Source of the DNA: Promethearchaeota archaeon
GTDB taxonomy: Archaea; Asgardarchaeota; Lokiarchaeia; Sigyniarchaeales; SOKP01
Reading direction: 5' to 3'
NCBI GenBank assembly: GCA_019894975.1
Contig: JAGXNO010000010.1
Location: 1 to 64,000, forward strand
DNA: 64,000 nt
In this document: one piece after another, positions 37,863 through 41,967 of the stretch
Layout: each line of letters begins with the position of its first letter
How positions within the stretch are numbered: the first letter of the stretch is position 1
Notes under the pieces: generated by a model
Seen by the model: only the letters and a program-made list of their open reading frames with translations
Databases searched by the model: none
Told to the model about the DNA's origin: nothing
Translations under genes and position numbers: made by a program

Positions 37863-38077
37863 AAATTTATCTCCATAATTGGTATAAAATTCAAATTAAA
37901 ATAATTTTAAGATGAATTCCTTATAAATATTTTAATTTGATTATCTTTAATAATATTTTCAAAATCATAATATAAAAACTTAGACTTCGATTTCTTAAAT
38001 TTAATCTAAAAGATGTATTAGAATCCTTCCAGATTTTTCCCTTAAAACCAAAAATATGGAGAATTACTCGTCAGTTC

Positions 38078-38578
38078 TTAAGTATCTTTTAAAATGATAC
38101 TTCTGGCATAATTAATTAGACCACCTTTAGATAAGATCTCTTCTATAAAAGAGGGCATCTTATTAACTTTAATTTCAACATCCTTAGAAAGATTCTTTAT
38201 CATCCCCTCATTAAATTTGATATCTATTTCATCGTCTGTGTTTATAAGCTCAATGTCAGAAAGCTCAATTATGGGGAGACCAATGTTTATCGCATTTCTA
38301 AGAAATATCCTTGCAAAAGAGGATGCAATTATACACTTAATTCCTGCAGATTTAAGGGCAATTGGTGCTTGCTCTCTACTTGAACCACATCCAAAATTCG
38401 ATCCCGCTACGATTATGGTATAATCGTGTTTATTTTTTTTCTCAATGAATTTTGCATCTAAATCTTCCATACAATGTTTAGCTAGATACTCAGGATCAGA
38501 AACCGTTAAGTATCTAGCAGGAATGATAAGGTCAGTATTTATATCCTTCATATCATATTTTATAACTTTTCCAATCAT
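38078..38578 (-). CDS. leuD: 3-isopropylmalate dehydratase small subunit (LeuD/HacB family)
   Basis: DINTDLIIPARYL, NFGCGSSREQA, SFARIFLRNAINIGL. Confidence 0.92.
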   Translation of the reverse strand: MIGKVIKYDMKDINTDLIIPARYLTVSDPEYLAKHCMEDLDAKFIEKKNKHDYTIIVAGSNFGCGSSREQAPIALKSAGIKCIIASSFARIFLRNAINIGLPIIELSDIELINTDDEIDIKFNEGMIKNLSKDVEIKVNKMPSFIEEILSKGGLINYARSIILKDT

Positions 38579-38588
38579 AAGATTCCCT

Positions 38589-39863
38589 CTATAAAGATTC
38601 TGGTGAAGTAATATACCCTTTTATGGCAGAGGCGGCAGCGATTGCAGGATTTGACAAATATATTTCACTTTCTGGATGTCCCATCCTACCAGTAAAGTTC
38701 CTATTTGTCGTCGATATCGCTTTTTCTCCAGCAGCTAGGATCCCCATGTGTCCTCCTAAACAAGGACCACAGGTAGGTGTTGAAAAAATTGCACCAGCGT
38801 CAATAAATATCTCAATTAATCCTTCCTTTAATGCTTGAAGATATATATTCTGAGTGCCTGGGATGACAATACATCTAACTTTGTGATGAATTTTTTGATT
38901 TTTCAAAATATTAGCAGCAATTCTTAAATCCTCTATACGACCATTTGTACAAGAACCTATTATTGATTGATCTATCTCCACCTTCATATTATCTACTTCT
39001 GAAATGGACTTGGAATTTTCAGGCAACGGAGGAAGTGCAACCTGGGGTTCTATATCTTTGCATTCAAATTCTATAATTTCACTATAACCAGCGTTTTTAT
39101 CACTCTCATAAATTTTATAATTAGTTTTTCCTACTTTTTCTAAGTAATCTCTCGTGATTTTATCAGGTGTTATAATTCCGTTCTTCGCTCCCGCTTCAAT
39201 TGCCATATTACACATTGTGAGTCTATTATCCATAGATAGGTTTTTAATAACATCTCCAGTAAACTCCATTGCTTTATAAGTCGCCCCATCAACTCCTATT
39301 TTGCCAATTGTATATAAAATTAAATCCTTTCCCGAAACCCATTTGTTCAAACTCCCAGAATAAACAAATTTTATCGATTCAGGTATTTTAAACCAGCACT
39401 TTCCTAATGCCATTGCAACACCCAAATCTGTGGAACCTACTCCAGTTGAAAAAGCACCAAGAGCCCCATAAGTGCAAGTATGAGAATCTGCACCAACAAA
39501 AGCCTCTCCAGGTCCTACCAAACCTTGTTCAGGTATGAGACAATGTTCAATTCCACCACGACCTACTTCAAAGTAATTCGAGATGTCATATTTGTAAGCA
39601 AACTCTCTAAGTGTTTCACATTGTTTTGCTGAGGCAATATCTTTATTTGGTGTAAAATGATCAGGAGTTAAAATTATCTTAGTTTTATCAAAGAGACTTT
39701 TATTTGATCCTTCAATCACTTTTTCAAACACTTCAATTGCAATAGGGGCTGTAATATCGTTAGCTAAGCATTTATCTATCTTGGCTAATATAAAATCTCC
39801 AGCAGTAGCAGACTTGTTTTCACAATGATCTCTTAAAATTTTCTCGGTTATTGTTAAGGCTAT
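38589..39863 (-). CDS. leuC: 3-isopropylmalate dehydratase large subunit (extended to probable ATA start)
   Basis: Upstream frame (I)[12 protein letters not shown]...NDITAPIAI; [35 protein letters not shown]. Confidence 0.92.
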
Positions 39864-39931
39864 GGGTATCTCCCCTTTTCAACACTCAAATTCTACCTAA
39901 TGATTAACTTATAAGAATACAAGAGTGTTTA

Positions 39932-41560
39932 TTAATTCTTAGATGCGTTTTTTTTCTTGAATCGCAACAATTTATTTAATCCTTTTAACAACGAGAGCAC
40001 AGAACTCATTACAATATCCTCATGGGTTGCACTTGCTTTTACAATGTGATTACTTTCAATATCCATAATTTCAATCGTTGAATGACCTAGGGCTTCAGTT
40101 CCTCCTGTTATCGCATCAATTTGATAATTCAATAATTTAATTTTACTCATAGGTTCAAAGCATTTAATAATTGCGTTGACTGATGCATCAACAGGTCCGA
40201 CCCCAATTGATGAGGCGACTTTTATGATACTATTTCCATTATCATCAATCTTTAAACGAACTGTAGATGTGGGTGTAATAGAGCCAGTTAAAACAGTTAA
40301 TTCTTCAAGTTTTACAAATTGATCCTCTTCGGGTAGTTCTCCGATAACATCTTTGAGTATTGCAAAGAAATCTTCTTCTTTAACCTCATGTCCTTTGTCA
40401 CCAAAAGCCTTAACATGCCCCATGATATTAGAAAATTGGTCATCCGAAGTATGAATACCTAAATCTTCTAATTTTGCCTTAAGTGCATGCCCTCCAGTAT
40501 GTTTCCCTAACTTTATCGATTGCTTAATAATGTCTTCTACATTATCGGTGCGTTTAATTCCTATTAATTCAGGTGTTATTGGTTCGTATGCACGAGCATG
40601 TTGAATCATTGCATGAGCATGAATACCTGATTCGTGTGCAAAGGCATTTTGACCAATTAGAGGAGTCAAACGTCCAATTGTGATTTTTCCCCCACATAAG
40701 CTTTCTACTAATTTTGCTGTTGGAAAAATCAATCTTGTATTTATATTCATCGGGATCCTATATAAAGCATATAGAGACATGGCAGTTTCTTCAAATGACG
40801 CATTTCCTGTTCTTTCTCCTAATCCTAATATTGTTGTTTGGGCTTCGGAAGCACCATTTTCAAATCCGGCTATTGTATTTGCCACACCCAAACCAAAATC
40901 ATTATGACAATGTACCGCAATCCTTACATCTTTAGGTAATGATTCATAATTTTTTCTCACGATATATCCATATGCAGTTGGAGATATTGTACCTACAGTA
41001 TCAGGAATATTTATTCGAGTAGCTCCGCTTTCGACAGCAGCTTGATTCACCTTAATTAAATAATCTAAATCTGTACGTGTCGCATCTTCAGCTGAAAATT
41101 CAATTTCAGAATAATGTTCTTTTGCATAAGAAATCAATTCTATAACACTATTAAGAACTTCTTCTCTCGTCATTTTAAGCTTTTCTTTTAAGTGTAAGTC
41201 CGAGGTTGCAATAAATACATGTATCGAATCCATATCTGCTTCAATAACCTTATCAATATCAACTTTTTTAATACGAGCTAACCCTATTATTTCTGAATCT
41301 AACCCTAGCTTAGAAATCTCCTTACAAGCTTCAAAATCACCCGGAGATATTACTGGAAATCCCGCTTCAATAACATCAATACCCAATGCATTTAATGATT
41401 GGGCTATAGATATTTTTTCTTTAAGAGCAAAACTAATTCCTGGCGTTTGTTCCCCATCACGAAGTGTCGTGTCGAAGAAGTATGCTTTTTTGGGCAGGAT
41501 TAAATCTCCTCGAATTTTTTCCATCATATCGGAAACCATTATATCACTTTTTTCATTCAT
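39932..41560 (-). CDS. leuA: 2-isopropylmalate synthase (LeuA/CimA family) with allosteric domain
   Basis: DTTLRDGEQTPG, HCHNDFG, GERTGNA, HESGIH, GVGPVDA; cimA cannot be excluded. Confidence 0.85.
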   Translation of the reverse strand: MNEKSDIMVSDMMEKIRGDLILPKKAYFFDTTLRDGEQTPGISFALKEKISIAQSLNALGIDVIEAGFPVISPGDFEACKEISKLGLDSEIIGLARIKKVDIDKVIEADMDSIHVFIATSDLHLKEKLKMTREEVLNSVIELISYAKEHYSEIEFSAEDATRTDLDYLIKVNQAAVESGATRINIPDTVGTISPTAYGYIVRKNYESLPKDVRIAVHCHNDFGLGVANTIAGFENGASEAQTTILGLGERTGNASFEETAMSLYALYRIPMNINTRLIFPTAKLVESLCGGKITIGRLTPLIGQNAFAHESGIHAHAMIQHARAYEPITPELIGIKRTDNVEDIIKQSIKLGKHTGGHALKAKLEDLGIHTSDDQFSNIMGHVKAFGDKGHEVKEEDFFAILKDVIGELPEEDQFVKLEELTVLTGSITPTSTVRLKIDDNGNSIIKVASSIGVGPVDASVNAIIKCFEPMSKIKLLNYQIDAITGGTEALGHSTIEIMDIESNHIVKASATHEDIVMSSVLSLLKGLNKLLRFKKKNASKN

Positions 41561-41596
41561 TATTTTTGACCTTCTTAAATTTCTTTATTTCTTAAC

Positions 41597-41654
41597 AATC
41601 CTTTTACCGTTGTGAGAAAAGTAATGTAAATTAATCCTCACAAGGAAAAGGATT
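41597..41654 (-). promoter_or_regulatory. Long RNA hairpin between the leader ORF and leuA
   Basis: AAUCCUUUU-CC-UUGUGAG ... CUCACAA-C-GG-U-AAAAGGAUU, 18 bp in three segments. Confidence 0.7.
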
Positions 41655-41776
41655 TATAATAATAAGTTTAAATCTAATTCACGTAAACACAATCCTAGTG
41701 AGGAATAACACTTCGAAATATTTCTTAAGTTAGATTCGAGTGATGGGTGAAGTGTTCTCATTCTCAATAATCTCAT
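41654..41776 (-). CDS. Putative leu operon leader peptide (40 aa, 13 Leu)
   Basis: MRLLRMRTLHPSLESNLRNISKCYSSLGLCLRELDLNLLL*; directly upstream of leuA on the same strand. Confidence 0.65.
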   Translation of the reverse strand: MRLLRMRTLHPSLESNLRNISKCYSSLGLCLRELDLNLLL

Positions 41777-41967
41777 AGTATTGTATTTTATAAAATAAAT
41801 TGCTTGTAGTTTTAAAAATATTACGATAAATTCTTCTCAAATTCTTATTAATTCTGACAGAATCCTTAGTACAAATTTAAATAAAATTATATGGGGAACT
41901 TTATTCCTTAACGCTTTTTATACCAATCTCATTTTATTCATTTAGAAACAATTTGGTTTAAATAAAA

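Follow-up and report, generated by a model that had tools for sequence, protein, structure and literature searches.

The window analysed in this work is a stretch of 64,000 nucleotides (nt) from contig JAGXNO010000010.1 (positions 1 to 64,000 of the forward strand) of a Promethearchaeota archaeon, assembly GCA_019894975.1. The source genome is 3.9 Mb in size, with a GC content of 31.6%. Our subject is the leader region directly upstream of the leucine genes leuA, leuC and leuD, which hosts a short, leucine-rich upstream open reading frame (uORF) and two RNA helices, P1 and P2. An original prediction, made from the letters of the window, had proposed that this leader is a leucine-sensing attenuator. 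The features of the leader and of the genes that follow it are listed below in the 5' to 3' direction of the minus strand.

41810..41819, minus strand: TATA-like element 1, ATTTTTAAAA, nearly invariant in an alignment of 15 sequences
41786..41795, minus strand: second A/T-rich, TATA-like block, conserved in the same 15-sequence alignment
41654..41776, minus strand: leader open reading frame (ORF) in its long form of 40 codons, translation MRLLRMRTLHPS...LDLNLLL, stop codon TAA at 41656-41654
41707..41756, minus strand: helix P1, AACACUUC (41756-41749) paired with GAAGUGUU (41714-41707)
41657..41698, minus strand: Leu-rich tail, the last 14 codons of the uORF with 8 Leu (CTA, TTG and six TTA), the presumed stalling zone
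41597..41654, minus strand: hairpin P2, with its 5' arm at 41654-41635, loop at 41634-41619 and 3' arm at 41618-41597
41614..41621, minus strand: pyrimidine/U-rich run CUUUUCUC in the apex and upper 3' arm of P2, at +35 nt from the first base of the stop codon
41561..41596, minus strand: A-rich spacer of 36 nt that holds the leuA Shine-Dalgarno (SD) sequence AGGT (41572-41569)
39932..41560, minus strand: leuA, 2-isopropylmalate synthase with the LeuA allosteric domain (Pfam HMGL-like, HCS_D2 and LeuA_dimer)
38078..39878, minus strand: leuC (Pfam Aconitase) and leuD (Pfam Aconitase_C)

The leader ORF and its hairpin

The translation of the leader ORF reproduces every detail that had been claimed for it. 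Leucine takes up 13 of the 40 codons and 8 of the last 14, and the frame ends in TTA TTA TTA TAA. The true start is likely to be the second in-frame ATG (41761-41759), which aligns with the start codon of the relatives described below and gives a peptide of 35 codons (MRTLHPS...LNLLL). One concern is that leucine codons such as TTA are common in any AT-rich sequence. We therefore counted the ORFs of 30-60 amino acids that begin with ATG throughout the genome. Just 70 of these 7677 ORFs reach 32.5% Leu, 8 carry at least eight Leu in their last 14 codons and 5 do both, which places the leucine content of the leader far above that of random AT-rich ORFs.

The hairpin that had been placed at the stop codon is borne out by folding. 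P2 spans 58 nt, contains 20 base pairs (bp) and has a predicted energy of -22.1 kcal/mol, and its first base is the last A of the stop codon. The 78-nt stretches that follow ordinary stop codons in this genome average -6.9 kcal/mol, and less than 1% of them reach -20 kcal/mol or below. In a genome-wide scan of short ORFs that end in a run of one amino acid, no hairpin past the stop is stronger than that of the leuA leader. P2 was not found elsewhere in the genome; the hairpin is unique and is not a repeat. The combination of uORF and P2 in the window is far from chance.

Helix P1 covers the start of the uORF. Its 5' strand corresponds to codons 2-5 after the conserved AUG and its 3' strand lies just 5' of the Leu-rich tail. 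This is the further upstream helix of the original prediction; it is present and, as shown below, it covaries.

Frameshift read-through from the uORF into the hairpin was rejected by eye, as both shifted frames meet a stop within about 10 codons. Elsewhere in the genome, a 45-codon ORF with the runs LLLL and LLLLLL (contig handle G000:C104, approximately 37991-38128, minus strand) lies 169 nt upstream of the gene for the peptide chain release factor aRF1 (37821-36541); the position of this ORF may be due to chance.

Conserved elements that resemble a promoter are confined to the region upstream of the uORF, as judged from TATA-like clusters that are anchored at its ATG. Across 55 leaders anchored at this codon, TTTWWAW heptamers cluster at -65..-51 and at -40..-31. 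Element 1 is the probable promoter of the leader-leuACD transcript on this evidence. If it is indeed a TATA box, the second block would lie at about the predicted transcription start. A transcription start downstream of the uORF, which would have removed the uORF from the message, therefore finds no counterpart among the conserved elements. There is also a TATA-like block within the 36-nt spacer, about 20 nt before the leuA ATG. It was rejected as a promoter because it is too close for the mRNA to hold the leuA ATG, and the later Met8 is not conserved. SD-like tetramers are found at -15..-13 before the uORF ATG in 28 of the 55 relatives. The spacer between P2 and leuA is 32-43 nt in most leaders, and has a TAGGT motif at -13..-9.

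LeuA scores 577 bits against the NCBIfam model NF002085, for which the cut-off is 517. The open frames of leuC (39878-38589) and leuD (38578-38078) follow leuA with tight spacing on the same strand, and are probably co-transcribed with it. The gap between leuA and leuC was checked and does not contain a second leader ORF. The leuC frame extends upstream to 39878, and there is no ATG, GTG or TTG near its conserved N-terminus (39870-39878, minus strand). A strong SD sequence, GGGGAG, stands before ATA codons at this point, so leuC may use an unusual start codon.

Conservation of the leader among relatives

In order to see whether the leader is conserved, we collected 98 loci with LeuA searches of related genomes and of GTDB species genomes. 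A Leu-rich uORF is found in every readable Promethearchaeota locus whose LeuA identity is at least 63%, with the exception of locus L012. This amounts to 65 loci and 58 distinct leaders, and confirms the conserved, Leu-rich uORF that had been expected of orthologous leaders. In locus L009, where the sequence is masked, the hairpin was found with a covariance model. The uORF is absent from the more distant Asgard families (loci L014-L017). The orthologous uORFs are 25-40 codons long, with C-terminal runs of up to seven or eight Leu, and in most loci they end 87-100 nt before leuA.

The composition of the tail is strikingly specific. Across the 58 leaders, leucine accounts for 66.5% of the last 14 codons and for 82% of the last 7. 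The remaining residues are mostly S, N, D, E and H. Since I, V, F, M and A contribute at most 2% each, the tail appears to be selected for leucine itself and not for hydrophobicity. The tails use TTA (69%), TTG (14%), CTT (9%) and CTC (4%), and this mixture of codons indicates that leucine has been kept through synonymous change. These results make it extremely unlikely that the ORF encodes a functional, Leu-rich micro-protein, e.g. a membrane peptide, which simply shares a transcript with leuA. Such a product would account for a conserved ORF with a hydrophobic C-terminus, but the polar residues between the leucines and the scarcity of other hydrophobic residues are unlike a membrane helix. 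Moreover, the N-terminal half of the uORF varies freely among relatives, and the motif occurs only with leuA.

This last point comes from a survey of the genus. The motif formed by the tail and P2 is single-copy, and is present in 15 of 54 genomes from the same genus. In all six of these 15 genomes for which the position of leuA is known, the motif is directly upstream of that gene. No match was found in the sampled genomes of the genus that lack leuA. The distribution of leuA is itself patchy, with the gene found in 7 of 24 sampled genomes, and many members of the genus may be leucine auxotrophs.

The hairpin is conserved, too. All 58 leaders have a counterpart of P2, with a length of 40-67 nt and 15-27 bp, that begins between -3 and +5 nt from the stop codon. 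The median folding z-score against dinucleotide shuffles is -3.4. The identity of the stop codon differs between leaders (TAA, TAG or TGA), and on average 1.6 nt separate it from the beginning of the first stable helix. The hairpin evidently tracks the stop codon and not the Leu run, because this offset holds both where the Leu run meets the stop directly and where one more codon stands between them. The original prediction is supported in this respect: the leader ORF is conserved and specific for leucine, it lies in cis to leuACD, and its stop codon is abutted by a conserved hairpin.

A check for covarying helices across orthologous leaders had also been suggested, and we find them for both P1 and P2. 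In 14 close sequences, 82.8% of the cells of P2 can pair, compared to 44-64% when the partner strand is slid; none of 500 shuffles reaches this score, and compensatory changes occur at 10 pairs. A MAFFT alignment of all 58 hairpins was misaligned and gave no RNAalifold consensus, therefore a covariance model was used instead. The model, built from the close sequences, locates P2 in distant clades. For 41 distinct leaders aligned in this way, 82.4% of the cells pair, versus 45-57% when slid, in an alignment that is itself fitted to the model. The 81 G.U cells in this set are more in keeping with an RNA from this strand than with a DNA palindrome. The sequence of the hairpin diverges between clades and its pairing is retained: cognate arms reach -19.4 kcal/mol, compared to -10.7 kcal/mol for arms taken from distant clades. 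The polarity of P2 is also conserved, with 77% pyrimidines in the outer 5' arm and 72% purines in the outer 3' arm. The purine-rich outer 3' arm looks like an SD sequence, and the 5' arm like an anti-SD.

P1 shows the same pattern. In the close clade 85% of the cells pair, versus 27-50% when slid, and AU to GC swaps stand at 7:6. In other clades this helix is built from different sequences, e.g. CUUCAAA/UUUGAGG, ACUCAAA/UUUGAGU, GCCAC/GUGGA and AUCCA/UGGAU, and cognate duplexes have a mean energy of -9.65 kcal/mol against -7.15 kcal/mol for non-cognate ones. The 3' strand ends 48 nt (interquartile range, IQR, 44-52) before the uORF stop. A helix over the start of the uORF suggests that sensing is single-round and co-transcriptional.

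A second leader of this type was found in the same genome, upstream of an isoleucyl-tRNA synthetase gene, ileS (TIGR00392, 825 bits).

G000:C91:25586-25663 (L099:287-364): Ile-run leader ORF and hairpin, upstream of ileS at L099:482-3370

This uORF ends in ...TSIIIIR. Its counterparts in 13 further genomes of the genus read ...NMIKIISTIIII and have a conserved hairpin after them, and in most of these relatives a run of T6-T9 lies about 50 nt past the hairpin. A 5' segment at the start of the uORF, GUGGAUGUGGAUG, can pair with AUCCAC just before the Ile run, or alternatively with CCACAUCC in the loop of the hairpin. A gauge of charged tRNA would predict this specificity, with a run of Leu ahead of leuA and one of Ile ahead of ileS. 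In a genome-wide search for leaders with amino-acid runs, leuA and ileS alone stood out in this genome; a matched leader is absent from both copies of leuS, from valS, from the second ileS and from two LeuA paralogs. The assembly carries two leuS and two ileS genes (G000:C146, C98, C91 and C142). These may be paralogs or may reflect two strains that were binned together; the contamination of the assembly is 8.55%.

It could be argued that P1 and P2 form a protein- or ligand-binding structure in the 5' untranslated region, or an element that stabilises the mRNA, and that the ORF is incidental. Both helices are conserved with covariation and an alternative fold was not found, as this explanation would have it. 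Nevertheless, we regard it as very unlikely. An incidental ORF would not be expected to stay open for 25-40 codons, in sequence of about 27% GC, in 58 distinct leaders, nor would its leucines be expected to survive synonymous changes while the stop codon holds its position and changes its identity. The ileS leader, furthermore, has Ile in the place of Leu. Nor does the leader resemble a known structured RNA: an Rfam cmscan at E-values up to 10 returned neither Leu_leader nor any other leader model, only a chance snoRNA match of 17 bits.

Short ORFs also precede leuA at some loci far from the Asgard archaea, namely four from Altiarchaeota (L090, L095, L097 and L098) and one from a GC-rich metagenome-assembled genome of Euryarchaeota (L092). 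The encoded peptides end in ...GNPxLxLLLLLRLRA or ...FLLSLRLLLVG, and a hairpin lies at the stop codon or spans it. A leucine leader may therefore extend well beyond the Asgard archaea.

From leucine sensing to the control of leuACD

From the conservation described above, we consider it very likely that the leader is a leucine sensor. It is likely, too, that it acts in cis, as a leader peptide that controls leuACD. How the position of the ribosome is converted into expression is a more tentative matter, and the mechanism that we propose below is plausible at best.

A conserved promoter would drive a transcript with the 35-codon ORF, P1, the Leu tail, P2 and then, 36 nt on, leuA. When charged tRNA-Leu is scarce, the first ribosome would stall in the tail, where it is clear of P2 and holds P1 open. 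P2 would then fold during transcription, and leuACD would be expressed. When leucine is ample, the ribosome would reach the stop codon, and its leading edge would open the base of P2 while RNA polymerase is near downstream. The opened base would expose pyrimidine/U-rich RNA, resulting in premature termination or cleavage that would probably depend on aCPSF1/FttA. P1 would then shut the start of the uORF, so that the decision is made about once per transcript.

The pyrimidines of P2 may have a part in this. Pyrimidine-rich blocks are located within the hairpin at +5..+19 and at +30..+44 from the stop. In 51 leaders the longest pyrimidine run, with a median length of 8 nt, begins at a median position of +36 relative to the uORF stop (IQR 34-37.5). 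In coupled complexes of bacteria, ribosome and polymerase come about as close as this to each other, but hardly closer. The run may be a pause or termination site, or a by-product of the geometry of the hairpin.

As P2 would refold once the ribosome has departed, an 'off' signal of this kind must be read at once. This need for immediate reading points to a co-transcriptional event, i.e. termination or cleavage, rather than to steady-state masking. Co-transcriptional reading fits the finding that aCPSF1, including the Lokiarchaeota orthologue, binds U4 tracts (PMC8716108), and the published proposal that the ribosome is a competitor of FttA on Spt5 (PMC11616081), although none of this is proof. 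The output is probably an RNA-level, factor-dependent decision. We favour this because leuA, leuC and leuD are tightly spaced without a second leader, because P1 closes the start of the uORF, and because of the pyrimidine-rich blocks of P2.

The original prediction envisaged two mutually exclusive folds, in which the 5' arm of P2 pairs either within the hairpin or with the coding region of the leader (41704-41698 with 41641-41635, and 41696-41691 with 41654-41649). This alternative pairing can form; it is adopted, at -25.7 kcal/mol, when the 3' arm of P2 is blocked, whereas the minimum free energy is -42.5 kcal/mol. However, it is not conserved. In 15 close leaders, 60% of the cells pair in the proposed register versus 59-66% when slid, and 159 of 500 shuffles do as well. 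On the other hand, the remark that no U-run follows the hairpin is correct. The sequence after P2 is the A-rich spacer, and the U4 tracts (41649-46 and 41620-17) lie inside the hairpin.

A number of results weigh against the termination mechanism. A ribosome at the stop codon would open few of the approximately 20 bp of P2, and termination does not need the fixed distance of 36 nt between P2 and leuA. In the registers tested, no conserved alternative helix, i.e. no antiterminator/terminator pair, was found: duplexes between the coding region and the 5' arm of P2 barely beat shuffled and non-cognate ones (z -0.66), and an 'antiterminator' pairing between the 3' strand of P1 and the 5' arm of P2 is weak (z -0.88). 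No T5+ run was found at a fixed place in the leaders, and such a run occurs anywhere in just 18 of the 58. Ordinary gene ends in this genome are enriched for T5+ at 10-30 nt past the stop and do not have hairpins there. The original prediction had suggested the masking of U-rich signals for aCPSF1/FttA as a possible output, but U4 tracts inside P2 are found in only 38 of the 58 leaders, with 26 expected. The SD-like element before the uORF is degenerate in the window. Finally, the hairpin of the ileS leader starts 8-10 nt past its stop codon, and thus fits the proposed geometry less well.

Of the alternatives to termination as the output, the main rival has the same sensor and a translational output. 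A stalled or terminating ribosome would change how readily the small subunit reaches the start of leuA: the start might be unmasked, the SD-like 3' arm of P2 might serve as a standby site, or the ribosome might sterically occlude the region across the base of P2. Such control would be akin to that of ermC or of the short poly-Cys ORFs of mycobacteria. We keep this explanation since the fixed spacer is better explained by a translational effect, with the distance between P2 and leuA held at 32-43 nt. The purine-rich, SD-like outer 3' arm of P2 and its anti-SD-like 5' arm would also suit it, and there is a terminator-free precedent (bioRxiv 10.1101/834739). For the leader family, the mean unpaired probability of the SD and AUG in three ribosome states is 0.46, 0.49 and 0.56, a slight rise from the first value to the last when the ribosome is stalled in the tail. 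In the window, by contrast, the SD and AUG are 0.72 unpaired in all three states, so that masking of the leuA RBS is not predicted; control of leuA initiation had been suggested as a possible output. Pairing of the Leu tail with the leuA ribosome-binding site (RBS) was rejected as well: the duplexes are no better than shuffled ones (z +0.26), and cognate and non-cognate pairs are equal. A translational output would also leave leuC and leuD in need of their own control, and a second leader is absent. On balance, we judge it unlikely that translation of leuA is what the leader regulates.

Known leader peptides and the significance of this one

The nearest known systems are the bacterial leader peptides. 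The enterobacterial leu leader (leuL; Rfam RF00512) and the leaders trpL, hisL, pheL, ilvL and ivbL likewise consist of a short ORF that is packed with codons for the product of the operon. Both these attenuators and the leuA leader have a conserved RNA structure after the ORF, and both need transcription and translation to take place in one compartment. There are several differences. The host of the leuA leader is an archaeon, and a sequence or model match to the leuL type is absent. Its Leu run is at the extreme C-terminus, abutting the stop codon. The hairpin lacks a U-run and a conserved antiterminator/terminator pair was not found. Unlike leaders of the leuL type, it also has a helix that covers the start of the uORF.

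Attenuators that depend on Rho illustrate that a terminator hairpin with a U-run is not needed. In tnaC-tnaA and mgtL-mgtA, both bacterial, the position of the ribosome on the leader ORF sets the exposure of a pyrimidine-rich entry site for the factor. For the leuA leader, the corresponding factor would be aCPSF1/FttA and not Rho, a parallel that we draw by inference only.

A third comparison is with mycobacteria, in which leaderless, short poly-Cys ORFs sense supply through ribosome pausing, without an intrinsic terminator (Canestrari et al., bioRxiv 10.1101/834739). There, the RBS of the next gene is hidden by a duplex, which the stalled ribosome blocks. The leuA leader is similar in that it is a short ORF with an amino-acid run and no intrinsic terminator. 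It differs in that a duplex that hides the RBS is not predicted, and in that the uORF is apparently led by an SD sequence and is not leaderless.

Full-text literature searches did not turn up a description of leader-peptide attenuation in archaea, which agrees with the original prediction, whose maker was not aware of a description in the Asgard archaea. One generalisation, which we offer as speculative and on present evidence doubtful, is that archaea have ribosome-mediated attenuation of their own design, without a terminator hairpin and U-run, and that the Ile version at ileS makes the two leaders part of an Asgard amino-acid 'ribulon'. The position of the lead ribosome relative to a hairpin that abuts the stop codon would decide whether the transcript is cut short, be it by aCPSF1/FttA or by the polymerase itself. 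The end would fall at the pyrimidine/U-rich run about 36 nt past the uORF stop, i.e. about one coupled ribosome-polymerase length.

Leader-peptide attenuation is the textbook proof that the bacterial ribosome and RNA polymerase work in step, and the Asgard archaea are the closest prokaryotic relatives of eukaryotes. If our reading is true, a conserved Asgard leader that is matched to its amino acid would show that the coupling of transcription and translation is used there for regulation. The leader would also be a compact and mutable test object for how archaeal termination, with aCPSF1/FttA and Spt4/5, reads the position of the ribosome. In addition, it would mark leuA and ileS as genes that are controlled by the supply of charged tRNA, in organisms that are very hard to culture.

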